This document shows, one piece after another, positions 12,002 through 25,445 of a stretch of 64,000 nucleotides of DNA (positions are counted from its first letter, which is position 1; every line of letters starts with the position of its first letter). The notes under the pieces are model-generated. The model was not told the DNA's origin, ran no database searches, and saw nothing but the letters and a program-made list of their open reading frames with translations. This DNA is from Candidatus Helarchaeota archaeon (lineage in GTDB: Archaea; Asgardarchaeota; Lokiarchaeia; Helarchaeales; RDOG01), in contig JAHPZH010000001.1 of NCBI GenBank assembly GCA_019058315.1, positions 945,432 to 1,009,431 on the forward strand, given 5' to 3'. A program made the position numbers and the translations under genes.

Positions 12002-12466
12002 TTGAGTGAAGAAGTAGAAAAAGAGGTAGAGAATGAGGAAGTAGAGAAAGAATCAGTAGAAGAAAAGAAAGAGGAAGAAACTACCGAAGAAAAAATAGAA
12101 GAAGAAGTCGATTCTGTTAAACCAGGTCTGAGTCCCAAACAAATTGCTATTCTACATTATAAATTACTTATGGAAAATAATCAAGACGAATGGATAAAGA
12201 CGCTAAAAAAGGATCTTCGAGTAAATGCCAAGGATCCCGCTTCCTCACCGGGATTTTGGTGGTTAACAGGGAGACGTTGTGTAACAAAGCATGGATATTC
12301 ATATACTTTTAGACATGAAGAAACAAAACAAGAAAATTATGTAAAGTTCTTTTTTAATCGATTAGACAAAGATGGAAAACCTGCAATGACTGGTCAAGTC
12401 CCAATCCACGTAATAAGGGACGAAAAAACCGATGGTGAATGGAGAATCGACACAGCAAGTTATTAG
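12002..12466 (+). CDS. Hypothetical protein with Glu-rich N-terminal extension, paralog of 12585..12935
   Basis: SVKPGLxPKxIAILHY, WWxTGR, FRHEET, KFFFxRL and EWR shared with the next gene. Confidence 0.8.
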   Translation: MSEEVEKEVENEEVEKESVEEKKEEETTEEKIEEEVDSVKPGLSPKQIAILHYKLLMENNQDEWIKTLKKDLRVNAKDPASSPGFWWLTGRRCVTKHGYSYTFRHEETKQENYVKFFFNRLDKDGKPAMTGQVPIHVIRDEKTDGEWRIDTASY

Positions 12467-12584: not shown

Positions 12585-12935
12585 ATGTCTGTAAAACCTG
12601 GTTTAGGTCCAAAGGAAATCGCAATACTGCATTATCAGTTAATAATGGAAAATAATAAGGAAGAATGGCTAAAAACAGTAATGAAGCAAAGAATTGGGAT
12701 ATCTTCGAATCAATGGTGGAAAACTGGGCGAAAATACATAGACAAAAAAGGCTGGTCCTATAAATTTCGACATGAAGAAACAAGACCTCAATTTAAAACA
12801 GAAACTAGCAGAAAATTTTTCTTCTATAGATTAAATGAAAAAGGAGAAGAACAAGGAGCCGGACCAGTCCCTATTATAATTGTTAAAGATCCCGATAACA
12901 ATGATGAATGGAGAGTAAAGGTCTCCTCTTGGTAA
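12585..12935 (+). CDS. Hypothetical protein, paralog of 12002..12466
   Basis: Same motif set without the acidic extension. Confidence 0.8.
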   Translation: MSVKPGLGPKEIAILHYQLIMENNKEEWLKTVMKQRIGISSNQWWKTGRKYIDKKGWSYKFRHEETRPQFKTETSRKFFFYRLNEKGEEQGAGPVPIIIVKDPDNNDEWRVKVSSW

Positions 12936-13655: not shown

Positions 13656-13755
13656 CTATTTCTTTTGCAATATTTTTTTAAATCCCCAGTTTAGAATAAA
13701 AATTAAAAAATAAGTCTTATTTATAAATTAAATAAATAGGGGAGACGTCAATTAT

Positions 13756-15171
13756 ATGCCAACTAAGAAAAAATCCATAAAGAAAACAAAGGGAAAAAAA
13801 CAAGTAAAGAGCAAGAAAAAAAGTAAAAAAACAAAGAAAATGAAAGCAGCAAAACAAAAAAGAAAGCTTCTAGCAGAGTTAAATGCAAAAGAAAGAAAGA
13901 AAAAAGTAATTTTTGGAGGACAAACAATTACACTTGAAGAACAATACGCTCTTGAGGACATAGAAAAAGAATTTGGAAGAAAGTTCAGCAAATTTAAAAG
14001 GATAGAATATGAACAATTCGGATTTTATGCTCACAATGGGAATGTTGTTAATTTAGAAATTCGTAATGTGGGATTAAAAAAAGTTCCAGATTCGATTGGA
14101 CTTCTTAAATCGCTAAAAAACCTGACTTTAAGTTATAACAAATTATCAAGTCTCCCTGACTCGATTGGAAATTTAAAGTCTCTCCAAGAACTTTTATTAC
14201 ACGGGAACCAATTGACAGCCTTGCCTGATACAATTGGCAATTTGGAATCGCTCACAAGACTTTGGTTACAGGATAATAAATTAACCAAACTTCCTAAAAC
14301 CTTACTCAATTTGTCTAAATTAGGAATGTTAGAAATTAAAAATAATCCCTTGTCTAAAGATTCTATTAAAATTTGGGAAAAATTGATGAAGCAAACAGGA
14401 AGATTTGGAGATATTACAAATGAAGAAAAAAAAGCTTTAGCAGATCTGGAGAAAGAAATTGGACAACCTATTCCTAAAAAGAAATATTTATCATTTCATC
14501 CATTTGGATTTGTAATTGAAAATGGGCATGTTACAGAATTGGGGATCGATAATAAAGGATTATCAAAAGTCCCTGATTCGATTGGTAATTTAAAATGGCT
14601 AAAATTGCTCAATTTGGGGTGGAATGGGGAGTTAAAAGCACTACCAGAAACGATTGGTAATTTGGATTTACTTGAAGTATTAGATATATGGGCTAGTAAA
14701 TTGACCACACTTCCGGAGACGATAGGCAACTTGAAATCTCTCAAAGATTTAGATGTAGGATGGAATCGTATAACTTTAATTCCTGAGTCGATTGGTGACC
14801 TAGAATCTCTTGAAAGTTTGAGTCTTGCACATAATATTGTACTAAAAGTACTCCCCGACTCAATTGGTAACTTAAAATCACTCCAAGAGCTACGATTAGA
14901 AGGTAATTTTTTAAACAATCTCCCAGAGTCTATCGGAGATCTTTCTAACCTTAAAACATTGACTTTAAAAAATTCTACTTTACCTAAGCTACCCAAATCG
15001 TTCGAGTCTCTTAATCTCAAGAAATTGGTATTGGGAGAATATCAGGTGAAGGATTTTCCAGAAGAATTGGCTAAAAAACTTAAAGCAAAAGGCTGTCGAA
15101 TTACTTATGAGGCACGAGAATGGATCGGTGGCTGGGGAGGAGATTGGGAAACAGTAACTTACGAACTTTAA
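13756..15171 (+). CDS. Leucine-rich-repeat protein, two LRR modules, Lys-rich leader
   Basis: 23-24 aa LPDSIGNLKSLxxLxLxxNxL repeats in two capped blocks; GGGGAG SD. Confidence 0.92.
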   Translation: MPTKKKSIKKTKGKKQVKSKKKSKKTKKMKAAKQKRKLLAELNAKERKKKVIFGGQTITLEEQYALEDIEKEFGRKFSKFKRIEYEQFGFYAHNGNVVNLEIRNVGLKKVPDSIGLLKSLKNLTLSYNKLSSLPDSIGNLKSLQELLLHGNQLTALPDTIGNLESLTRLWLQDNKLTKLPKTLLNLSKLGMLEIKNNPLSKDSIKIWEKLMKQTGRFGDITNEEKKALADLEKEIGQPIPKKKYLSFHPFGFVIENGHVTELGIDNKGLSKVPDSIGNLKWLKLLNLGWNGELKALPETIGNLDLLEVLDIWASKLTTLPETIGNLKSLKDLDVGWNRITLIPESIGDLESLESLSLAHNIVLKVLPDSIGNLKSLQELRLEGNFLNNLPESIGDLSNLKTLTLKNSTLPKLPKSFESLNLKKLVLGEYQVKDFPEELAKKLKAKGCRITYEAREWIGGWGGDWETVTYEL

Positions 15172-15186
15172 GGAGAGTTATATTTA

Positions 15187-18100
15187 ATGCCTAAAGGAAA
15201 AAAAACAACAAAAAAGAAGGAAAAGATAAAAAAACAAGTAAAAAGAAAGAAAAAAAGTAAAACCACAAAGAAAAAGAAAACCGAAACGCAACAAAGAAAG
15301 CCTTTAGCAGAGATGTCAGCAGAAGAAAGAGAAAAAAAGGTGATTTTTCGAGGACAGACAATTTCACTTGAAGAGCAATATGCTCTTGAAGATTTGGAAA
15401 AAGAACTTAATATGAAAATTGGTAAATTCACAAGGATAGAGTATAAACAATTTGGATTTTTTGCTCATAATGGAAGTGTCAGGAACTTAGAGATTCGAAA
15501 TGTGGGATTAAAGAAAGTACCAGAATCAATTGGTCTTCTGAAGTCTCTAAAAGACCTGACTCTAAGTTATAATACATTAAAGATTCTTCCAGAGTCGATT
15601 GGGGATCTCGAATCGCTTGAAGTACTCTATTTACATGGTAATCAATTGACAACTTTACCGAAATCAATGTTGAAATTATCTAATCTACGAGGTATAAAGA
15701 TTGAAGAAAAAAATGTTCCAAATAACAATCCATTGGATAAAGCTTCTCAAAAACTCTTGGCACAATTGAGAGAGAGAACAAGTAAAAGGATCGAAAAAAA
15801 GCCGATTACAGATAAATATCAAGGAATAACGGTCACAGTTGAGGAAAAGAAATCGTTGAAGGATCTTGAAAAATTAATTAAAAAGCCAATCCCCTACCAA
15901 TCTGTCCCCCAAAGAGTTTATGCATTAAACATTCCATTCGATTCCAGAAGAGTTAATTATGATTTCGGGTTTAGAACTTCAGGGGGGAATATTATTGGAT
16001 TAGGTTTGCAGGAATTAGAATCACTCCCGGAGTCTATATCTCAATTAAAATGGCTCAAAGGATTGAGATTAACAGATAGCAATTTTAAAGCTCTCCCGGA
16101 ATCGGTTTTTAGTCTAAATTTACTCATCTTCCTAACTCTTAGTAATAATCAATTGATTAAAATCCAAGATTCCATCAAAAACTTGCAATTGCTCGAACGA
16201 CTAGATTTGAGTAATAACCAGTTAAAAACTCTTCCAGAGTCCATTGATAATTTAATTTCACTTCGAAGTTTATTTTTAAATAATAATGAACTAACTCAAC
16301 TACCCGATTCGATTACTAAGTTAAAGGAACTTCAAACTCTACATTTACATAATAACAAGTTGAAAACTCTCCCTGATTCGATTGGTGAATTAGAAAAAAT
16401 CAGGGATTTGAAATTAAACGATAATCTATTAGAAGAACTTCCAAAATCAATTCGTAAAATAAAGGATGTTAGTAATCTAAATCTATCTAACAATAAATTT
16501 TCTATTATCTCTAATGCTATTGGAGCATTCAAATCCCTCTATAAACTAAATTTAAGTAATAATCAGTTGGAGTCACTCCCCGAATCGATTGGAAAACTTA
16601 AATCTCTTGAAATATTAGATTTAAGTAATAATCAGTTAAAAAGTCTTCCTGAATCGTTTGGAAAATTGGGAAAACTCCTTGAATTAAATTTAGAGAATAA
16701 TCAATTAACGACTCTCCCCGATTCTTTTACCAAACCAGAGTCTTTTGGTAATATGAGATGGTTCCGTACCTTAGATTTAAGTAATAACCAATTAACAAAA
16801 TTACCAGAGGACATTGGTAACTTAGTGGAACTTACGACCTTGGATTTAAGTAACAATCAAATAACGACACTGCCTGAATCCTTATTAAAACTTTCCGAAT
16901 TGCATTTAATAATCTCTAACAACCCATTATCTAAAAAAGCTTTTAAAATCCTTGATAAGATGGAAAAAACAGGTGCCAGAATAGAAAGGACTGAACTTGC
17001 AAAGTTATCCATGAAATATCGAGGTAAGAAGGTTGCCTTTGAGGAAAAAGAAGCGCTCGAGAGTTTGGAAAAAGTTGTCAAAGGTGAGCGCATTACTTGC
17101 GTCATAAAAGAGCCTCACATTAATAGAATAAACTTATCTAATAAAGGGTTAACAACTTTTCCCGATATTATAACTAAATTTAAATTCCTTACTTCTCTGG
17201 ATTTATCTGATAACCAGTTAACGGTGCTTCCTGAGTCAATTGGTAATTTGAAATTGCTCAATTATCTTAATTTAAGTAATAACAAATTGACAACACTCCC
17301 CGATTCAATTGAAAATTTGAATTCGCTTAATAGACTTCAATTATCAAATAACAAATTGGAAAAACTACCTAATACAATAGGTAAACTAAAATCACTCAAG
17401 ATTTTGATGTTACAAAATAATCAACTAGCAACTCTCCCTGATTCCATTGGTGATCTTACCTCCCTCTCCACTTTACATGTTGAATATAACATTCTGACAA
17501 ATGTTCCAGAGTCAATTGGTAAATTAAAAAATCTTCTTGAATTTGAATTGAGTTTTAATAAATTAAAGACGATACCGAAATCAATAGGTATTCTGGAATC
17601 TCTTAGAGAATTACATTTAGGGATGAATGATTTAATAACTCTTCCCCCATTATCAAACTTAAATAAACTCAAGATATTATATTTAAGGGGTAACGAATCA
17701 TTAACATTACCGAAATCGATATCAGAGCTCAAAAACGTAATAGTTGATAGTATGATAGTACTGAGTGAGTCGAAGATAAAAACCTTAAATTTGAGTAAAT
17801 TGAAGGAATTCTTGCGTTTGGAAGAAGGTAGCTGTGGACAAGAAAGTGGGAAACCTAGTGTTACAATTGATGAGAAGTTCATCGGTCCTTGGCTTTGGAT
17901 AAAGGCACGCGTGGAAACTGAAGGGAAGGAGTGGACTCCATCTACCGATCGCGCTAGTGGAGATGATGTTAGTTGTACTACAGGATACGACTGGGTAGGT
18001 TTGGCTGAGACCGTACCAACGAATATTTTTCTCCCCAAAGAACTAGATCATTGGGCTGTTTATAAAACATGGCACTCATATGAATATTGTGACTGGGCTC

Positions 18101-18288
18101 GATATGAGAGTGGGAGTTGGGTAAAGGACGTTTCAGAAGACGGAAAAGTGACTATAGTAAAGGCAATTGAATATTTTAGCGAAAACCCTGATTGCATGGA
18201 ATATGTTCAACTAGAAAAACCAATAAATTCCACTATAAAACCCAAAAAGAAGGTCAAAACCAAGAAAAAAACTAAAGCTAAGGAATAG
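15187..18288 (+). CDS. Leucine-rich-repeat protein, three LRR modules, unique C-terminal domain, Lys-rich ends
   Basis: More than 20 LRRs in three capped blocks; Trp/Cys/acidic C-terminal domain; KPKKKVKTKKKTKAKE tail. Confidence 0.92.
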   Translation: MPKGKKTTKKKEKIKKQVKRKKKSKTTKKKKTETQQRKPLAEMSAEEREKKVIFRGQTISLEEQYALEDLEKELNMKIGKFTRIEYKQFGFFAHNGSVRNLEIRNVGLKKVPESIGLLKSLKDLTLSYNTLKILPESIGDLESLEVLYLHGNQLTTLPKSMLKLSNLRGIKIEEKNVPNNNPLDKASQKLLAQLRERTSKRIEKKPITDKYQGITVTVEEKKSLKDLEKLIKKPIPYQSVPQRVYALNIPFDSRRVNYDFGFRTSGGNIIGLGLQELESLPESISQLKWLKGLRLTDSNFKALPESVFSLNLLIFLTLSNNQLIKIQDSIKNLQLLERLDLSNNQLKTLPESIDNLISLRSLFLNNNELTQLPDSITKLKELQTLHLHNNKLKTLPDSIGELEKIRDLKLNDNLLEELPKSIRKIKDVSNLNLSNNKFSIISNAIGAFKSLYKLNLSNNQLESLPESIGKLKSLEILDLSNNQLKSLPESFGKLGKLLELNLENNQLTTLPDSFTKPESFGNMRWFRTLDLSNNQLTKLPEDIGNLVELTTLDLSNNQITTLPESLLKLSELHLIISNNPLSKKAFKILDKMEKTGARIERTELAKLSMKYRGKKVAFEEKEALESLEKVVKGERITCVIKEPHINRINLSNKGLTTFPDIITKFKFLTSLDLSDNQLTVLPESIGNLKLLNYLNLSNNKLTTLPDSIENLNSLNRLQLSNNKLEKLPNTIGKLKSLKILMLQNNQLATLPDSIGDLTSLSTLHVEYNILTNVPESIGKLKNLLEFELSFNKLKTIPKSIGILESLRELHLGMNDLITLPPLSNLNKLKILYLRGNESLTLPKSISELKNVIVDSMIVLSESKIKTLNLSKLKEFLRLEEGSCGQESGKPSVTIDEKFIGPWLWIKARVETEGKEWTPSTDRASGDDVSCTTGYDWVGLAETVPTNIFLPKELDHWAVYKTWHSYEYCDWARYESGSWVKDVSEDGKVTIVKAIEYFSENPDCMEYVQLEKPINSTIKPKKKVKTKKKTKAKE

Positions 18289-18505
18289 ATTAGTTAAAAA
18301 AAGCAGTATATTGGCGTATTTTTATTCCCTGTATTCCAAATAATATATTTTTCATCTATACTCTAGAGATTATTTAAATATAGAAAAATCGTCTTTTTAT
18401 TTCTCTTGAAGCATTACCCTGCCAAATTTAATAAAAATCAAAATAGAAAAATTAATTTTATAAAAAAAAATTAGAAAATACAGATGAAATTGAATCATTG
18501 AACAA

Positions 18506-18673
18506 CTAGTGTTGTGTAGTCAAAAAGATTAGCATAGCTAAAGCTCCCAAAGTTCCAAAATACCAGTCAGAGCGAGATAGGTTAGAAACAGTCCATAAGT
18601 ACACACCGAGAAATGCAATTCCTATTGATAATCCAAGTAATATATAACTTAATATTTCTTTAAATTCTACCAT
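18506..18673 (-). CDS. 55-aa two-TM membrane microprotein (absent from the ORF track)
   Basis: Manual translation MVEFKEILSYILLGLSIGIAFLGVYLWTVSNLSRSDWYFGTLGALAMLIFLTTQH*; GAGGA SD. Confidence 0.75.
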   Translation of the reverse strand: MVEFKEILSYILLGLSIGIAFLGVYLWTVSNLSRSDWYFGTLGALAMLIFLTTQH

Positions 18674-18687
18674 ATTTTTTCATTCCT

Positions 18688-18849
18688 CTAACTGGTAATT
18701 ATATAATGTAACGCAGTAAAAACTAAAGCTATTGTGATAATGGATACTTTGGAGATTTCAGATAAATTGAAAAAAGCTAATAGGAAGGTCACGAATGCAA
18801 TTGAACTAAATATTATTATTAAAATACTGATGAATTCATTTCGTTCCAT
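18688..18849 (-). CDS. 53-aa two-TM membrane microprotein
   Basis: MERNEFISILIII...HYIITS*; GGTGGT SD places the start at 18849. Confidence 0.75.
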   Translation of the reverse strand: MERNEFISILIIIFSSIAFVTFLLAFFNLSEISKVSIITIALVFTALHYIITS

Positions 18850-18865
18850 ATATACCACCACTGGC

Positions 18866-19027
18866 TTAGCCACCGAACCCCTTAAACATGAGATATAGAA
18901 GAATTGGGAATATTAAGCTTAATATTTGGTTTAAATTTGAAGCGATTCTTATACCTAAAAATGCAAAGACTAATGCTGCTGATGTAATGCCTAAAGCTAT
19001 GATAGTTAGTACATCTTCCCGTTCCAT
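18866..19027 (-). CDS. 53-aa two-TM membrane microprotein
   Basis: MEREDVLTIIALG...FKGFGG*; GGAGG SD inside the 3' end of the upstream gene; start 1 nt after the upstream stop. Confidence 0.75.
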   Translation of the reverse strand: MEREDVLTIIALGITSAALVFAFLGIRIASNLNQILSLIFPILLYLMFKGFGG

Positions 19028-19028
19028 A

Positions 19029-19226
19029 TTAACTTCCTCCTTCAACAAAAACTCTGAATAACCATGGACCATAAGCTGTTGTGTAAGATGTATAATACTG
19101 TCCAATAGTAGCTAGACGAGAAATTTGGAGTAACATCATGATTCCAAGAACAACAGTTGCTATTAAAACTCCGGTTAAAATATATCTTAAAATATTTGAT
19201 AAAATATCTGATGTTTCTGATGACAT
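19029..19226 (-). CDS. 65-aa membrane microprotein, first gene of a four-gene operon
   Basis: One strong TM (YILTGVLIATVVLGIMMLL) followed by a Tyr/Thr-rich segment; no SD, likely leaderless. Confidence 0.7.
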   Translation of the reverse strand: MSSETSDILSNILRYILTGVLIATVVLGIMMLLQISRLATIGQYYTSYTTAYGPWLFRVFVEGGS

Positions 19227-19231
19227 AATAT

Positions 19232-19259
19232 AATTTTAAATATTGAAATATTTAAAATT
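19232..19259. promoter_or_regulatory. Perfect 13-bp inverted repeat in a divergent promoter region
   Basis: AATTTTAAATATT-GA-AATATTTAAAATT; each arm contains TATA-like TTTAAATA, in opposite orientations. Confidence 0.55.
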
Positions 19260-19303
19260 TCAGTTTAAATAAAAATATTATATGTTAAAAAAAAGTATTT
19301 GAT

Positions 19304-20131
19304 ATGGTTATTATGCAAAGATTATTAAATAAAGTAGCTTTAATAACGGGCGGTGCTTCGGGTATTGGACATGGAATTGCAAGAAAATTTGCACAAGAAG
19401 GTGCCGATATAATTATTTCTGATATTTTTTTACGCTCTCCTGACGAAGTTGAAAAAATAAAAGCTGAACTTAAATCCGAAATAAAATCTTTTGGTCGGGA
19501 TGCTTTAATTTTAAAGGTTGATGTAACAAACAGTGATCAAGTTCAAGAAATGGTAAAACAATCAATTGAAAAATTCAATAAAATTGATATTTTGATAAAT
19601 AATGCGGGTATAATGCCTCCATCAGCGTTAAGAAGTATTACACATATAAAAGAAGAAGATTGGAAACGTATACTTGACGTCAACTTGAATGGTGTCTTTC
19701 TTTGTTCGAAATATGTGGCTAAAAAAATGATTAAACAAAAGGATAAATCAAATCCTAATAAAATTCGAGGTAGAATAATCAGTATGTCCTCTGTTGAAGG
19801 CCGACAAGGTCAACCATTAATGGGTCCTTATTGTGTTTCAAAATCTGGTGTAATTTCTTTAACTCAGACCTTAGCCAAAGAATTAGGATCAAAACATATT
19901 TTGGTAAATGCAATCTGCCCTGGTTTGGTGAAAACTCCATTATTAGGTCCACTTGCGGATATGTATCTTGATGAAAAAGTTCTTAATGATCAATTCAAGT
20001 TAGTACCTATTATTGACCGTTATGCATTACCTGAAGATATAGCAAAGATGGCAACTTTTCTAGCATCAGACGAATCTAGCTATATTACAGGACAGGCAAT
20101 TAATGTTTGTGGAGGAATGCAATTCTATTGA
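19304..20131 (+). CDS. Short-chain dehydrogenase/reductase (FabG-like)
   Basis: TGGASGIG, NNAG, YCVSK, VNAICPG, YITGQ. Confidence 0.95.
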   Translation: MVIMQRLLNKVALITGGASGIGHGIARKFAQEGADIIISDIFLRSPDEVEKIKAELKSEIKSFGRDALILKVDVTNSDQVQEMVKQSIEKFNKIDILINNAGIMPPSALRSITHIKEEDWKRILDVNLNGVFLCSKYVAKKMIKQKDKSNPNKIRGRIISMSSVEGRQGQPLMGPYCVSKSGVISLTQTLAKELGSKHILVNAICPGLVKTPLLGPLADMYLDEKVLNDQFKLVPIIDRYALPEDIAKMATFLASDESSYITGQAINVCGGMQFY

Positions 20132-20165
20132 TTGCATTTTTTAATGTTCAAATTAAATTTTTTAG

Positions 20166-21305
20166 ATGATTTGTATGGCTGAAACGGATTATTACGAGTT
20201 GGTAAGAGAAAAATTAACACTTGGTCCTATATTCGCTCCAAAGCATGAAAAAACCATTGAAGTTATGAAAATCCTTTGGAATGAGGAAGAAATTAAAATT
20301 CTCTCCCATTTTCCTAAAGCTGGAAAGAATATTTCAATAAGAAAATTATCTGCAATAGAAGGAATGCCATCACCAGAAAAACTTAAGACAATTTTAAATA
20401 AACTATCAGAAAAAGGGACTATATCTCAAAGTGGAACACGCTTTGGATTAATTCCACTTGCCCCAGGTGTTTTTGAAAAATATTTTCTTGCTCAAAAAGA
20501 TTCAAAGGAAAATATGTCAAGAATAGCCGTTATATTTCGCCAATTTTTTGATGAAGTCATACCACAATTAGTACTTAAAAATGATTTTCAATTACTCCGT
20601 CCTCTACTTCCATATGAGTCCCAAAGTAAAAAATTAATTGAAATTGATAAAACAATTGAGCATAAAACTAAGGTGCTCCCCTTCGAATTAGTAGAAGAAT
20701 TAATCAATAAATATGATATATTTGCTGTTGTGCCTTGTCAATGTAGATTATTAGGTAAATATGCGGGTGAACCTTGTGAATTAGTCTCTGAAGAAGATGG
20801 ATGTTTATTTGGCGGAATTGCAGCTGAAGGTATTTTAAGCACGGGACAAGGAAGAAAACTAAATAGAGAAGAAGCAATTGAATACGTTAAGAAATGTGAA
20901 AAAGCAGGTCTTGTTCATAATACTGTAGATGATATTTCTGGGGAATCTCAATTATTTATTTGTAACTGCTGCAGTTGCCATTGTGGAGTTTTATATCCTG
21001 CAAAGAAACACAGAGTTAAATCTTTAAGCCCTAGTAATTTTTCACCAATAATTAACAATGAACTCTGTGTAAAATGTGAAATATGCATGGAAAAATGTCC
21101 TATGGGTGCAATTTATCATATTTATCCCAATAAAACCGACTCATCAGATGAACATATGTTAATCAGGAAAGATTTTTGTATTGGATGCGGAGTATGTGCT
21201 ATTAACTGCCCTAACAATGCGATAGTCCTTGAAAAAACTAAGGATGACGTTCCTCAGAAAAAATTAACATTTGAAAATAAGAGTTTCTTAGAATTATTCT
21301 TGTAA
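20166..21305 (+). CDS. 4Fe-4S dicluster protein (same family as 8173..9297)
   Basis: CQCR, ICNCCSCHC, CVKCEICxxxCP, CIGCGVCxxxCP. Confidence 0.9.
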   Translation: MICMAETDYYELVREKLTLGPIFAPKHEKTIEVMKILWNEEEIKILSHFPKAGKNISIRKLSAIEGMPSPEKLKTILNKLSEKGTISQSGTRFGLIPLAPGVFEKYFLAQKDSKENMSRIAVIFRQFFDEVIPQLVLKNDFQLLRPLLPYESQSKKLIEIDKTIEHKTKVLPFELVEELINKYDIFAVVPCQCRLLGKYAGEPCELVSEEDGCLFGGIAAEGILSTGQGRKLNREEAIEYVKKCEKAGLVHNTVDDISGESQLFICNCCSCHCGVLYPAKKHRVKSLSPSNFSPIINNELCVKCEICMEKCPMGAIYHIYPNKTDSSDEHMLIRKDFCIGCGVCAINCPNNAIVLEKTKDDVPQKKLTFENKSFLELFL

Positions 21306-21425
21306 AAAAAGATAGATATTAAAAATGGACAAAAATTAAATATGGGAAAATAAAAAAAATGGAATTTTGTTTTCATTAATACAACATCATAAGAAAAAAA
21401 AAAATGGTAATTTAAACAATTTATT

Positions 21426-22451
21426 TTAAGCTGTTTTTGGAGTTTGAGGTTCACTTTTATAATTTATAATTCTATTTGTTTCAGGAACTATGATATTTTT
21501 TTTTAATTTTGTTTGTTGGTAATTAGAAAGATCAGTTTTTAAAGTTTCTGCAATTTCTCCTAGTTTACTAGATGTAGCTGAAATTTCTTCTATTGATGCT
21601 ATTTGTTCTTCAATAGAAGATGTTATTTCCTCCATAGAACTTGAGTTTTGTTCACTTAAAGCTAAAACTGATTGAATTTCATTTGTAATATTTCCAATAA
21701 GCATTACTGTTTTTTCAATTTGTTCTATAATATCCTTTATTCGATTTGAAGAATTGAGAACAGATTTTTTAGATTCTTCAGCGAGCTTACGGACTTCATC
21801 TGCAACAACTGCAAAGCCTCTACCATGTTCTCCTGCGCGTCCAGCTTCAATACTTGCATTTAATGCTAATAAATTTGTTTGTTCCGAAATATTTGTGATT
21901 ATATTCATAATATTACGAATCTCATCTGAAGAAATTAAGACATTATTTGCTTGCAGTTCTATATCTTTTGCCATAGTGTTAATATTTGTAATTTGTTTTA
22001 CTGTACTTTGAGTATTCAAGTTAATTTCTTGTGAAGTTGCACCGATTTCTTCCGAAGATGCATTGACCTCACTTGCACTAGCTGCTAATTCGGTTGCCAT
22101 ATTTGCTACATTTATTGAAATCTGCATTGAACTCTCTTGTCTGTTACTAAGCTCATTTTTCTGATTCCGAACTACATTCCAAATATAATTAGAGGTCCAA
22201 AATACCAAAATAGCACCACTAGGAATAATAAATAAGACAGAAATCAAACTATTCTGAAAAATGCCTAAAATTAAAAACACACATTCACTAAATAATATCA
22301 CATTCAACCACGTAAAGGCAGCTACCTTAAACTCCAGCAAACCTTGATCCCTTCCTGATCGGAGATAGAAAAAGATTATTACTATTGCTGCCATTAAGCC
22401 TGCTATTAACATTTCGTACGGGATTGGAATCGATAACGCATTTTCTTCCAC
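21426..22451 (-). CDS. Methyl-accepting chemotaxis-like protein
   Basis: [40 protein letters not shown] signalling hairpin; about three N-terminal TMs. Confidence 0.92.
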
Positions 22452-22911
22452 TATTCTCCACCAACTTCTAATAATTTATGGTCTTTTTGAATTTATTATT
22501 TGTCAAATTTCTTTATTATGAATTGTTAGCATTATTTAAAGATTAAAGTAAAGCTCGATTGAGTGGAATATTAGTCTAAAGTCAATTGAATTTTATTTAA
22601 AATATTACAATTAAAAATTGTTAAACTATTAAGTATGAATGAGAGATTGTGTATAGATACAATCCTTAAAATATAAAACAAAGACATTGAAATTGGTAAA
22701 CAGCATTTAAGCAAATTAAATATAATTTATTAAACTTTAATTTTGTATTTCTTAATATTTTAAACGCAAACGAAAATTTAAAGCTTTATAGTTAATTAAT
22801 TAATTTTTAAATTTCATATAATGCTTTAACTTTAGGAGCTTCTATTATTTTTCCATGAAAATCTTTCATTTCGCTTATTTTTGAAGGTTCGCAAATTCAT
22901 AATTCATTAAA

Positions 22912-23874
22912 TTATTTAAAAAGCTTAAGAAAATCTGGATTTTTCCATAATTTTTTAAAATATTTAGAAGTTTTAATACTTTCAAATGCAGGGTGCCCTG
23001 TTCTTTTAGCTTGTTTCAGATAGTAAATTACATTATCTATTTCATCTTTTTTCAAGTAGTACCATGCAATATTTTCAAAAATAACTGGATGTATTTTATC
23101 TATTTTGTCAAAGGCTTCAGTTATGATTTCTTCGAGAGTTTCATCAATTTTATCAGCAACTATGTAAGCATCTGTCATATTTACATAAAGTGTAGGAATA
23201 ATTTCACGATCTTCTTTATTCCAATAGTCTTTCGTTAATTTTAAGGCTATATCACTTGCTTCTTTTGTTTCTTTTCTGTTTAACGCATAAATTACATTGG
23301 ATAGTGAATATGGATTATTTAAGATTTTATCATTTTTTAAACATATATCAACGTATTTATCTATAATATCTTGCTTGCCTAAGGGAAATGCAGCATAAAA
23401 AATACCCGTAATGTACATCGGTGTGTATTTTGGGTGAAAAGGTTTTTGTTCGACTCCTTTTCCAAATACATTTATTGCTTCTTTCAATTTTTTCTTGTAT
23501 GAATAAATAACTCCCAAGATATTATATAATTCATGAGGACAATTAGGTAAATCGAAGGCTAGCTCCATAATTTGTGTCCCTAACTTTAAATTTGATTTAC
23601 TAGATTCTTTTACAACACTATAATAATCTTGAGTTATTATTTGTACATTCGCTACATTTTTACCAATTTTATATAATTCTTCAGCTCTCTCATCAAGAGG
23701 AATATCCTTAATATATTCTTTTATATATTGAATTGGATCCTTCAATTTTTTAATTTCTTCGACACTTTTTAATTTCATTTTTATTTTCCCTTTTTTTGTA
23801 ACTTTCTTCACTTTTTTAGTGACTTTCTTTCCTTTTTTTGAAATTTTCTTTTTACTTTTTGTAATTTTATTCAT
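22912..23874 (-). CDS. TPR-like protein with a Lys-rich heptad leader
   Basis: LYNILGVIYSY...EAINVFGKG and ENIAWYY...YYLKQA TPR-like helices; GGAGG SD. Confidence 0.75.
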   Translation of the reverse strand: MNKITKSKKKISKKGKKVTKKVKKVTKKGKIKMKLKSVEEIKKLKDPIQYIKEYIKDIPLDERAEELYKIGKNVANVQIITQDYYSVVKESSKSNLKLGTQIMELAFDLPNCPHELYNILGVIYSYKKKLKEAINVFGKGVEQKPFHPKYTPMYITGIFYAAFPLGKQDIIDKYVDICLKNDKILNNPYSLSNVIYALNRKETKEASDIALKLTKDYWNKEDREIIPTLYVNMTDAYIVADKIDETLEEIITEAFDKIDKIHPVIFENIAWYYLKKDEIDNVIYYLKQAKRTGHPAFESIKTSKYFKKLWKNPDFLKLFK

Positions 23875-23899
23875 CCTCCTATTTCATAGATCATTAATC

Positions 23900-25342
23900 T
23901 CATGTTGTTACATCACAACCTTTCTTCTTCAAGTCTGATATCCATTTTTTTATCTTGCTCGGCAACTTGCTTGTTGACATGAGTGGAGTAGATCGTAAAT
24001 TCAATTGTTTAAGTGAGGTTAAATTACCAATTGACTCTGGGAGTTTAGATAAATTTTTATTATATTTTAGGTGAAGATGTGTAAGGTTAGTAAGATTTCC
24101 AATAGAATCAGGAAGATTGGTTAATTGGTTGGAAGATAAATCGAGTCCTTGAAGTGAATTTAAATTACCTATTTCCTCGGGAAGTGTAGTTAATTTGTTA
24201 CTCTCTAAACTCAACATTCGAAGTAAAGGTAAATCGCCAATCGTCTTAGGTAGAGAAGTCAATTCGTTATTCTTCAGTATTAGTATTTCAATCGCCTTTA
24301 GATTCCCAATCTCATTAGGAAGAGTAGATAATTTATTATTCTCAAGCCCTAATAGCTTAAGGGATTTTAAACCACCTATTGACTTTGGTAGACTCTCTAA
24401 ATGATTATTGTCTAAAAAGCATTCTTTCATATTCTCTAAATTACCAAATGACTCTGGAAGTTCTGTTACATAATTTTGTTGTATATCGAATAAATAAAGG
24501 TCCTTTAAATTTCCAATTACATCAGGAAGTGCGCTCAATCCCCTTCCTGCCAATCCAACTCCATTTACATGCTCTTTTTTTATCATTATTCCAACCATAC
24601 CCGCCTCGATGAACTCAACAACATTTAGTTCTCTCCTAATTAAATCTTCTAACACTTCAATTACTTCAATTTCATAAGCGGGTAATTTTATTCCACGAAA
24701 ATCTTTCATATCTTTTATTAATTCTTTTTCTTTAATCTCAGATATTAAAATTTCTCCATTCACATTTTTAGGGGGTTTAGCGAAATTTTGACTTTTTAGC
24801 ACCTTAATTACATCCGGGAATTTTTTCCTATCATTCTTACAAACTACACTAAACAATATATATGGCCCAATAAAACATCTCTTTAAACTAGTTTCGTATT
24901 CTTTATTGTTTTTAGGTATCATTTTATTCAATTGTTGGTCTAATGCCTCAAAGAATTTAGGAATCTTTTCCCAGCCATATTTCGGGTCAAATGTTATTTG
25001 AAAAGATTTTCCCTCAACAACATTCAATTTTATGATTCCCTTAAATGGAATGATTCCTTTAATTTCCATACGAGAATTTCCTTTAATTGCCAACGATCCT
25101 TTCTTATACAATTCAATATAACTATCATAAATACTGAAATTGAGCTCTGTAGGGGGAAAAACAAACTTTATATTTTCTTTATCCTCTGCATCAGCTCCCA
25201 GAATCAATAACGCAGTGCCTTCTCTAAAAGTTATAAGAGGTGAATCTTTTTTTAAGACTTTCTTCTCTTTTTTTATCACTTTCTTTCCTTTTTTAGAGGT
25301 CTTTTTCTTTTTTTTTGTAACTTTCTTGCTTTTTTTTGGAAT
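23900..25342 (-). CDS. LRR protein with an N-terminal beta-rich domain and Lys-rich heptad leader (probable ATT start; ORF track starts at GTG 25279)
   Basis: About eight LRRs; frame stays open upstream as I-P-KKSKKVTKKKKKTSKKGKKV behind a GGGAG SD. Confidence 0.85.
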   Translation of the reverse strand: MPKKSKKVTKKKKKTSKKGKKVIKKEKKVLKKDSPLITFREGTALLILGADAEDKENIKFVFPPTELNFSIYDSYIELYKKGSLAIKGNSRMEIKGIIPFKGIIKLNVVEGKSFQITFDPKYGWEKIPKFFEALDQQLNKMIPKNNKEYETSLKRCFIGPYILFSVVCKNDRKKFPDVIKVLKSQNFAKPPKNVNGEILISEIKEKELIKDMKDFRGIKLPAYEIEVIEVLEDLIRRELNVVEFIEAGMVGIMIKKEHVNGVGLAGRGLSALPDVIGNLKDLYLFDIQQNYVTELPESFGNLENMKECFLDNNHLESLPKSIGGLKSLKLLGLENNKLSTLPNEIGNLKAIEILILKNNELTSLPKTIGDLPLLRMLSLESNKLTTLPEEIGNLNSLQGLDLSSNQLTNLPDSIGNLTNLTHLHLKYNKNLSKLPESIGNLTSLKQLNLRSTPLMSTSKLPSKIKKWISDLKKKGCDVTT

Positions 25343-25445
25343 TATAATCGTCTCCCAATTTAAACAATTAGTAATTATTAAATGGATATTGATTTAATCT
25401 TTTCCGAAAAAATAAAAATAAGTAAATTTTTTGTATAAAAAAAGT

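Follow-up and report, generated by a model that had tools for sequence, protein, structure and literature searches.

Four genes in a stretch of 64,000 nucleotides (the window) from the genome of a Candidatus Helarchaeota archaeon code for repeat-scaffold proteins, P1 to P4, whose N-termini are the most lysine-rich among about 4,970 open reading frames (ORFs) of this genome. Our present results indicate that common composition is not a common module here: the leaders fall into two distinct low-complexity tails of known kind, each the product of recent expansion. We propose, with evenly divided confidence, that they are lineage-specific, fast-evolving and disordered polybasic tails, which would act as electrostatic tethers to a nucleic acid or chromatin polyanion.

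Four scaffold genes and their lysine-rich leaders

The host genome (5.8 Mb, 30% GC) has an overall lysine content of 8.9% in a crude whole-genome set of 4,968 ORFs. All four ORFs, reported previously in a sequence-only reading as two gene pairs, are present in the ORF listing of the window. P1 (13756-15171, forward strand; 471 aa) consists of a leader, a cap module and SHOC2-type leucine-rich repeats (LRRs), organised as two cap+LRR cassettes. It matches Pfam LRR_14 (1.9e-39) and LRR_8 (6e-29), and among proteins of solved structure Leptospira LIC11098 and human SHOC2 come closest (E 2e-57). P2 (15187-18288, forward strand; 1033 aa) is the tandem paralog of P1, alike over the first ~140 residues (73% identity over residues 2-138), with additional LRR cassettes, a C-terminal domain of unknown kind and a lysine-rich C-tail, which had been claimed earlier and is found at 18232-18285 on the forward strand (the last 18 residues, 10 of them Lys). 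P3 (23900-25342, reverse strand) joins its leader to a rare N-domain of ~170 aa and unknown fold, a cap and LRRs; Pfam matches on P1-P3 belong to LRR_8, LRR_14 and LRR_4. AlphaFold2 (AF2) modelling of P3 from a seven-row alignment stayed below pLDDT 50 for residues 1-264 and is uninformative on the leader and N-domain, and an ESM Atlas search with the N-domain gave chance-level matches only (0.81). P4 (22912-23874, reverse strand; 320 aa) combines a leader with a TPR-like alpha-solenoid domain. Its Pfam matches to TPR_1/2/8 all lie below cut-off, NCBIfam TPR_END_plus scores 33.3 bits (cut-off 32), and the AF2 model is made of all-helical repeats (pLDDT 88.6), for which the best Foldseek matches are the TPR proteins NlpI, KLC and OGT at a TM of only 0.33-0.47. 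A contig search for related loci returned only the contig from genome G146 and generic LRR genes, and none among metagenome contigs. A scan for sigma-70 promoters and terminators stayed at shuffle level, the sigma-70 model not being applicable to archaea.

The leaders hold 18-24 Lys in 32-51 residues, with 0-6 Asp+Glu. On the forward strand, that of P1 (13756-13905) has 50 codons, 24 Lys and a net charge of +24, and that of P2 (15187-15339) has 51 codons, 21 Lys and a net charge of +18. On the reverse strand, 32 codons with 19 Lys form the leader of P3 (25247-25342) and 34 codons with 18 Lys that of P4 (23773-23874). The first 30 residues contain 17 Lys in P1, P2 and P3 (counted from ATT 25342) and 16 in P4, in agreement with the earlier description of the leaders as roughly half lysine. 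At least 12 Lys in the first 30 residues occur in only 13 of the 4,968 ORFs, with P2, P1 and P4 as ranks 1-3; the remaining 43 ORFs of the window have 0-8. Nearly all net charge comes from the leader (for example, +21 of +24 in P1 and +17 of +21 in P4).

A period of seven residues, also noticed earlier, is real in P3 and P4. Both leaders repeat the heptad x-K-K-hydrophobic-x-K-K, encoded in 21-nt tandem repeats: Tandem Repeats Finder reports 4.4 copies at 25245-25337 in P3 and 3.1 copies at 23786-23850 in P4. Comparing the Lys pattern with itself at lag 7 gives an agreement of 0.86 in P3, reached by none of 5000 shuffles, and 0.81 in P4, reached by 15 of 5000; the same test finds no such period in the leaders of P1 and P2.

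The leaders are real and very probably translated, as judged from start sites, codon usage and in-frame conservation in orthologs. P1, P2 and P4 begin with ATG, and SD-like GGAG lies 9-11 nt upstream of each leader start (in P1 as GGGGAG at 13739-13744, 11 nt ahead of ATG). Since P3 has no ATG, GTG or TTG upstream of GTG 25279, its leader needs a near-cognate start, namely ATT 25342 (in the order GGAG, 9 nt, ATT) or possibly ACG 25351. The ATT is supported by the G146 ortholog, where ATT directly follows an in-frame TAA. One alternative for P3, in which translation begins in the neighbouring frame at a TTG further upstream (an ATG in G146) and slips +1 on an A-run, was set aside; direct initiation at ATT is favoured because, in both genomes, this TTG/ATG either overlaps or precedes the SD-like motif, which stands 9 nt before ATT. 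Internal starts at Met29 of P1 and Met33 of P4, which would skip the leader, were rejected since neither Met is conserved in orthologs (Met29 is not conserved in P0002, the P1 ortholog). Lysine codons of the leaders are AAG in 30% of cases versus 18.5% genome-wide (p = 0.013). The leaders hold A-runs of 6-9, the longest being 9; runs of A8-A9 are commonplace in the genome, with 2815 runs of 8.

The earlier judgement that the leaders are not Sec/Tat signals holds. The maximal Kyte-Doolittle mean over 19 residues within the first 120 residues is 0.28-0.86 (the membrane-span level is about 1.6), so that no hydrophobic segment follows the leaders; they contain 0-3 Arg each and no RR, hence no twin-arginine motif; and the junctions KKVIFGG, KKVIFRG, KKDSPL and KMKLKS share no cleavage motif. 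In common with H1-like tails, the leaders are terminal, contain at least 40% Lys+Arg and have few acidic residues. A sign of disorder, another feature of such tails, comes from P4, where pLDDT falls below 50 over residues 1-29 of an AF2 model that is confident elsewhere; low pLDDT on a shallow alignment is a weak sign. Intrinsic disorder is the most likely state of all the leaders.

Two leader types and their relatives

Only composition is common to all four leaders, and sequence similarity is confined to each pair. At the DNA level the leaders of P3 and P4 score 79 against each other, compared with a background of 32.8 +/- 8.2, the third highest value of 1431 pairs, while comparisons between the P1/P2 type and the P3/P4 type give 32-36, like any two Lys tracts. 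Homology at the DNA level links the leader of P3 with that of P4, and neither of them with those of P1 and P2, whose common leader is due to tandem gene duplication. The proposal of one portable module on four proteins therefore does not stand. What remains of portability is one leader on two folds, in P3 and P4, and these are not independent: each is one half of an LRR+TPR-like protein, which other Asgard genomes encode in fused form (L002:1495-3252(-), at 63% identity; P0125; P0126). In the alignment, the P4 leader corresponds in position to the linker that joins the two domains in the fused orthologs. Another relative, P0130, fuses actin (E 7e-104), LRR and a P4-type domain. The two leader pairs are 8 genes apart, and this closeness is not significant (simulated p about 0.19 once paralogy is allowed for).

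The leaders are unusual for this genome and LRR-enriched, as had been suggested: with the paralog pair counted once, LRR proteins are enriched for N-terminal leaders (Fisher p = 0.008) and for any Lys tract (Fisher p = 0.002). About 50 further LRR proteins encoded in the genome are without a leader, and in 160 genomes of the class no LRR/TPR protein was found to begin with a heptad leader. The heptad motif has no other occurrence in this genome, and 118 of 119 database homologs of P1 have no leader. Nothing points to the sensor system imagined earlier, or to defence: PADLOC models gave no match to P1-P4 at E up to 0.01.

Lys tracts in general (at least 13 Lys in some 30-residue segment) are found in 53 ORFs, about 1% of the proteome, at N-termini, C-termini and linkers. 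About a third of these ORFs have no Pfam match. The annotated ones mostly act on DNA or RNA: Pfam matches include Topo VI A and B, type IA topoisomerase and ATP-dependent DNA ligase, and further members are an HhH-GPD glycosylase, an HNH nuclease, RNA polymerase A'', Nop5 and ribosomal protein S25e. Tract-bearing proteins outside nucleic acid metabolism are gelsolin-like, JAB/MPN, radical SAM, GyrI-like and LRR+ankyrin proteins.

Close orthologs carry the leaders; more distant ones have only 10-12 basic residues at the N-terminus. In close orthologs, at 79-89% identity, the leaders are in frame and 23 to 50 residues long, with length steps of whole heptads; P0002, P0122, P0124 and P0127 are among these orthologs. 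P0002 is 89% identical to P1 and keeps its leader in frame at 70% identity, versus 90% for the body, and the P3 orthologs P0122, P0124 and P0123 are 86, 79 and 80% identical over the N-domain. Overall, leader identity is 59-70% where bodies are 79-90% identical. Leader lengths are 10, 23, 32, 40 and 49 residues in the P3 family, whose orthologs differ by exactly 7 or 14 residues, and 12 to 51 residues in the P1/P2 family; leaders of 23-49 residues go with body identities of 76-83%. In all four genomes with the split pair or P1, the leader is in frame with a charge of +9 to +26. The P2 ortholog L006 (genome G006) has only MPSGKKPTKEKK ahead of the same cap, so the P2 leader is an expansion of about 37 residues. 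Codon differences between P1 and P2 number 4 synonymous and 17 non-synonymous in the leader, versus 30 and 21 in the body, a pattern that would fit relaxed constraint or gene conversion as well as selection for charge.

Possible origin and role of the leaders

A short basic N-terminus already present in the LRR family, MPSGKKPTKEKK or (M)SKTKKGGKK, may have been the starting point. Two separate expansion events would have followed: tandem duplication of an A-rich 21-nt unit encoding roughly G-K-K-V-T-K-K, giving the P3 and P4 leaders a single common origin, and growth by less regular slippage in the P1/P2 leader, which then would have spread through tandem gene duplication. Selection would maintain charge and reading frame rather than sequence. 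The role of such a leader would be non-specific electrostatic tethering, its charges, about +18 to +24, holding on a polyanion both a cytoplasmic LRR scaffold that is otherwise near-neutral and the TPR-like partner split off from it. Binding of a polyanion, nucleic acid or membrane, would be the most reasonable function of the leaders, and nucleic acid or chromatin is the most probable target because of the company such tails keep in this genome. Composition, genome rank, repeat structure, variation among orthologs, gene fission and the low model confidence of the P4 leader are shown by the analysis; translation, disorder, binding and target are all points that we infer. To our knowledge, LRR/TPR scaffolds have no need for nucleic acid, which counts against this choice of target, and the long form of the leader may be dispensable, as lengths vary five-fold and distant orthologs manage with 10-12 residues. 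Among prokaryotic proteins, lysine-rich low-complexity regions show enrichment in those that bind DNA (PMC6821194), and in another AT-rich genome Lys-rich tandem repeats can, by expanding, give rise to localisation sequences whose effect depends on their length (PMC5207086).

The leaders could instead be a neutral by-product of slippage-prone A-rich tracts at tolerant protein ends in a genome of 30% GC, without function of their own, which we regard as unlikely but worth serious attention. Whole-unit length differences between close orthologs, the short leaders of distant ones, the scatter of Lys tracts over about 1% of ORFs at both termini and in linkers, the faster evolution of leader than body, the non-synonymous excess between P1 and P2 and the non-significant proximity of the two pairs all agree with it. 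Yet AT bias alone would also give runs of Asn, Ile, Phe or Tyr, and these tracts are almost pure Lys; AAG codons are enriched and interrupt the A-runs; frame and positive charge persist in four genomes; both halves of a split protein have the same leader; and Lys tracts of the genome are concentrated on enzymes acting on nucleic acids, with an enrichment on LRR proteins as well. A tether to the acidic membrane leaflet or to actin filaments, with the heptad folding on contact into a narrow-faced cationic amphipathic helix, seems improbable to us. It draws on the two hydrophobic residues (V/I/L/T) per seven among the Lys of P3 and P4, on the actin-LRR-P4-type fusion P0130, which points to cytoskeleton rather than DNA, and on a gelsolin-like protein of the same genome with a Lys-rich C-tail; moreover, Lys-rich repeats of Plasmodium target the cell periphery and cytoskeleton (PMC5207086), and the Lys-rich region of K-Ras4B is a membrane anchor (PMC6888304). 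Such a tether is at odds with the absence of an amphipathic period from P1 and P2, of lipidation motifs and hydrophobic anchors from the leaders, and with the DNA- or RNA-related work of most Lys-tailed proteins in the genome.

An effect at the level of RNA or translation, in which an unstructured A-rich 5' coding region boosts initiation and offsets the weak ATT, or A-tracts attenuate or phase-vary expression, is very unlikely. The ATT start shared by P3 and its G146 ortholog, the A-runs of 6-9 and the synonymous conservation of K-K codon pairs between P1 and P2 (14 same, 2 changed) would suit it, but leaders of 100-150 nt extend far beyond the part of a coding region that influences initiation, the other three genes start at ATG, AAG keeps the A-runs short in a genome where A8-A9 is commonplace, and the C-terminal tail of P2 is left unexplained. 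Hardly credible, finally, is the cleavable or machine-recognised export or loading tag suggested in the sequence-only reading. Extreme N-terminal position on four proteins and one leader on two different folds speak for it; against it are the missing h-region, the junctions KKVIFGG, KKVIFRG and KKDSPL with neither common cleavage site nor conserved motif, the absence from the other ~50 LRR proteins and from distant orthologs, the variable length, and the lack of dedicated machinery encoded nearby.

The polybasic tether admits a more specific and quite doubtful extension: when the ancestral fusion gene split in this lineage, the P4 half may have acquired a copy of the P3 heptad leader with its start context, restoring co-localisation on one polyanionic surface and so compensating the fission, and the Lys-tail with LRRs would be a prokaryotic counterpart of the SHOC2 type. 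The expansion of LRR solenoids is common to Asgard archaea and eukaryotes (bioRxiv 10.64898/2026.10.28.762692), and a tail that places LRR scaffolds on chromatin, RNA, actin or membrane would, if true, be the first handle on their site. P3 and P4 offer a natural experiment, a split protein with the same tail on both halves beside relatives with the fused form. The main value at present is a clean case of Lys-rich tails arising by repeat expansion in an AT-rich archaeal genome, and a warning that common composition does not mean common module.

Comparison with known systems

The closest known parallel is found in repeats of exported Plasmodium proteins (GARP, KAHRP-family), where short Lys-rich units are likewise tandemly expanded in an AT-rich genome (PMC5207086). 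There, too, copy number varies between close relatives, and proteins with no other relationship bear the tails; the leaders of P3 and P4 are tandem Lys-rich units of this type, and those of P1 and P2 are not. Fusions to GFP have shown length-dependent electrostatic targeting by the Plasmodium repeats (Davies, Thalassinos and Osborne 2016, PMC5207086). These, however, belong to a eukaryotic parasite, are exported with their proteins into the host cell, are internal or C-terminal and have other unit lengths, whereas the Asgard leaders are N-terminal, on cytoplasmic LRR/TPR-like scaffolds, and known from sequence.

Linker histone H1, topoisomerase and Ku tails resemble the leaders in about 50% Lys, few acidic residues, terminal position and likely disorder (PMC6821194), and the tailed histones of Asgard archaea present another Lys-rich comparison (bioRxiv 10.64898/2026.07.02.735847). 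In the genome studied here, topoisomerases, DNA ligase, a glycosylase and RNA polymerase subunits carry tails of this sort. Unlike these DNA-binding tailed proteins, P1-P4 have protein-protein interaction solenoids as bodies and no nucleic-acid domain, and the leaders lack the richness in Ala and Pro that is typical of H1 tails. A basic N-terminal stretch or polybasic run is shared with the n-region of signal peptides and the hypervariable region of K-Ras4B; the hydrophobic core, twin-arginine motif and cleavage site of Sec/Tat signals and the lipidation motif of K-Ras4B are missing.

SHOC2 (SUR-8), a eukaryotic RAS-PP1C scaffold, also has a Lys-rich N-terminus before an LRR solenoid of the L-x-x-L-P-x-x-I-G type. 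SHOC2 chains match the P1 LRRs at E 2e-57 to 6e-50, a generic repeat similarity, as Leptospira (bacterial) and plant LRRs score alike. Its tail is a mixed K/E/S region, unlike the half-lysine leaders; the N-terminal region, which contains a short linear motif, was not part of the construct used for crystallisation (PMC9452295). At the P1/P2 junction, KKV[IV]F fits the RVxF consensus and occurs also in P0002 and G006. The Phe, however, is part of the FRG motif in the cap, found in P3 as well (KDFRG), and KKV[IV]F is probably the first strand of the cap; an RVxF/PP1 reading would be a weak lead.

Lysine-rich N-termini of four repeat proteins

The four repeat-scaffold proteins of the window, P1 to P4, are encoded by two gene pairs, co-oriented within each, in a 5.79-Mb assembly of 12 contigs with a GC content of about 30%. 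The gap between P1 (13756-15171, +) and P2 (15187-18288, +) is 15 nt, that between P3 (23900-25342, -) and P4 (22912-23874, -) 25 nt. P1, P2 and P3 are LRR proteins with high Pfam scores. P4 gives only sub-threshold TPR matches in Pfam; its AlphaFold2 model is an all-helical repeat domain (pLDDT 88.6) whose top structural matches are the TPR proteins NlpI, kinesin light chain and OGT (TM 0.33-0.47), and its C-terminus scores above the NCBIfam TPR_END_plus cut-off.

The sequence-only reading described N-termini that are roughly half lysine on all four proteins, with leaders of this length missing from the metabolic genes of the window. Both points were confirmed with a crude genome gene set (4,968 non-overlapping ORFs picked by codon-usage score, 89% of the DNA covered), where lysine makes up 8.9% of all residues. 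A typical ORF carries 2-4 lysines within its first 30 residues, and only 13 of the 4,968 carry at least 12. P2 (17), P1 (17) and P4 (16) take the first three ranks, P3 read from ATT 25342 has 17, and the window's remaining 43 ORFs have 0-8. Nearly all net positive charge of each of the four proteins comes from this leader.

The 7-residue period claimed for P3 and P4 also holds. Tandem Repeats Finder detects a 21-nt period in both leaders (P3, 4.4 copies, 25245-25337; P4, 3.1 copies, 23786-23850), and in a lag-7 test few or none of 5,000 shuffles match their lysine pattern. The leaders of P1 and P2 lack such a period, and when the genome is translated in all six frames, KK-h-x-KK-x-KK-h-x-KK turns up in P3 and P4 only. 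P1 is preceded, at a distance of 1.3 kb, by the gene of a small protein (12002-12466, +; start GGTGG, 7 nt, TTG) with a Glu-rich N-terminal leader of 38 residues that is missing from the protein's close paralog (12585-12935, +); this leader could be a charge partner of the lysine leaders or just another low-complexity expansion.

Two leader families and a split gene

The proposal of one shared module on four proteins did not survive pairwise DNA comparison of all 54 Lys-rich tracts in the genome (1,431 pairs, mean local score 32.8, sd 8.2). P1-P2 and P3-P4 leaders give the second and third highest scores (87 and 79, the latter over an 82-nt ungapped alignment), whereas P1/P2 against P3/P4 stays at background (32-36). 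The leaders form two families. P1 and P2 are tandem paralogs with 73% identity across their first 138 residues, and their leader is common by descent. Their leaders (13756-13896 and 15187-15330, +) differ by 4 synonymous and 17 non-synonymous codons, the next 93 codons by 30 and 21; this contrast may reflect gene conversion, or constraint acting on the leader DNA at the nucleotide level, with constraint on the protein relaxed.

The leader had further been seen as one module on unrelated LRR and TPR domains. The likeness of the P3 and P4 leaders stands, but the two genes are the halves of one split gene. LRRs followed by a P4-type domain occur in a single protein in G030 and G146, two further genomes, and in the database entries P0125 and P0126, at 61-67% identity to P3/P4, and in the alignment the P4 leader takes the position of their mixed-charge interdomain linker. 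The split form is found in at least two other assemblies. P3 ortholog P0122 and P0127 each come from a 6,267-nt contig, P3 ortholog P0124 and P0158 each from a 6,553-nt contig; judged by equal contig size alone, each pair probably shares one contig.

Between leader and LRR cap, P3 has a further domain (24706-25240, -; residues about 38-215) for which Pfam, Atlas search and AlphaFold2 modelling gave no confident answer. It occurs in 6 proteins of a 5.8-billion-protein collection and in one of 160 other genomes of the class; this sole carrier belongs to another family than the source genome, so the distribution is patchy.

Leaders and start codons in orthologs

The P3 frame has no ATG, GTG or TTG upstream of GTG 25279. 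Its start region (25342-25356, -) places ATT 9 nt behind an SD-like GGAG, and the context GGGAGACG..ATT-CCA-AAA resembles GGGGAGACG..ATG-CCA of P1. The G146 ortholog (56-66% identical; locus L052, about 1750-1790, -) reads an in-frame TAA directly before ATT-TCA-AAA, with GGTGG 9 nt upstream of ATT and no canonical start ahead of the conserved N-domain, which argues for a conserved near-cognate ATT start. Close orthologs, as annotated, have their initiator Met opposite ACG 25351 of P3, three codons upstream; the leader is included from either start.

The leaders appear to be recent expansions that are NEVERTHELESS kept. P0002, 89% identical to P1, has a 50-residue leader in frame (70% identity), and none of the remaining 118 listed LRR homologs of P1 exceeds 7 lysines in the first 30 residues. 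The P2 ortholog of genome G006 (cap 62% identical) has only MPSGKKPTKEKK ahead of the equivalent cap. Leaders of 49, 40 and 23 residues precede P3 orthologs whose bodies are 83, 79 and 76% identical; they differ from the P3 leader by whole heptads. The G146 ortholog has ten residues in this place. Annotated P4 orthologs begin with MKKVTKKGK or MKKTTKKA; P0128, a stand-alone P4 relative (50-53% identical), has its own Lys-rich head of 34 residues. Across orthologs, leader identity is 38-70% where body identity is 76-90%, and the leaders carry net charges between +4 and +26.

Where leader and cap meet, KKV[IV]F is found in P1 (13897-13914, +), P2 (15331-15348, +), P0002 and the G006 ortholog (L006, about 236-250). 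It fits the PP1-docking RVxF consensus, as in the SHOC2 tail; its role is probably structural, since the Phe belongs to the conserved FRG of the cap.

Lysine tracts in the genome and the role of the leaders

A repeat regex recognizes about 53 ORFs of the genome as LRR proteins, with 164 LRR_8 matches in support. N-terminal leaders are over-represented on them (Fisher p = 4e-4; 0.008 with P1/P2 as one); the window's three are the only cases. Two more, an LRR+ankyrin protein and a 1,657-residue protein, have Lys-rich C-tails, and enrichment of any lysine tract gives p = 2e-4 (0.002 with P1/P2 as one). With only two independent leader events, their spacing of 8 genes is unremarkable (p about 0.19). 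Heptad leaders on LRR or TPR proteins were not found elsewhere: none of 18 two-heptad DNA sites in 160 other genomes of the class is one, and a reversed-pattern control gave, by eye, at least as many sites.

At least 13 lysines in some 30-residue window occur in 53 ORFs (13 N-terminal, 18 C-terminal, 22 internal). Pfam was run on 33, and 14 had no match at the cut-offs used. Nucleic-acid proteins among them are Topo VI subunits A (N-tail) and B (internal), type IA topoisomerase (C-tail), ATP-dependent DNA ligase (linker), HhH-GPD glycosylase (C-tail), HNH nuclease (N-tail), RNA polymerase A'' (N-tail), Nop5 (C-tail) and ribosomal protein S25e; others are AAA_5 ATPase, GyrI-like, JAB/MPN, DUF2240, gelsolin-like, LRR+ankyrin and radical SAM proteins. 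This list agrees with the association of prokaryotic Lys-rich low-complexity regions with DNA binding (PMC6821194). The topoisomerases, ligase, glycosylase and RNA polymerase A'' (C11:805969-810972, C1:169159-171441, C3:362312-363811, C5:109801-110562, C10:154629-155981) carry 14-17 lysines per 30 residues, and such tails and linkers are a eukaryote-like habit.

In the best reading, expanding repeats would have turned a short basic N-terminus into the leaders, which would keep their charge while sequence and length drift, and act as polybasic, probably disordered tails, non-specific electrostatic tethers most likely to nucleic acid. That they are a neutral product of slippage is possible, if rather unlikely. 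Codon use in the leaders speaks, modestly, for an avoidance of long slippery runs: AAG makes up 30% of lysine codons there and 18.5% in the genome as a whole (p = 0.013), AAG-AAA pairs are over-used, and the longest A-run is at most 9. More doubtful is targeting to membrane or actin by an amphipathic heptad helix, a period that P1 and P2 lack. Asgard proteins repeatedly combine LRRs with a P4-type domain at the C-terminal side, and in metagenomic P0130 (843 aa) this TPR-like domain comes after a full actin domain (Pfam Actin, E 7e-104) and LRRs; this fusion hints that the LRR + P4-domain module may act with the Asgard actin cytoskeleton. A translation-level role is very improbable, and an export tag hardly credible; as the sequence-only reading had noted, no hydrophobic segment follows any of the four leaders.

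The original observation is confirmed and its interpretation partly supported. The leaders are Lys-rich tails of an already known kind. Their closest precedent is Plasmodium, where Lys-rich repeats expand into length-dependent localisation sequences (PMC5207086). In architecture SHOC2 comes nearest: its LRRs stand behind an N-terminal region rich in lysine (PMC9792188), and its tail has an RVxF motif for PP1C (PMC9452295); the match of P1 repeats to SHOC2 chains (E 2e-57) reflects generic LRR similarity, not orthology.
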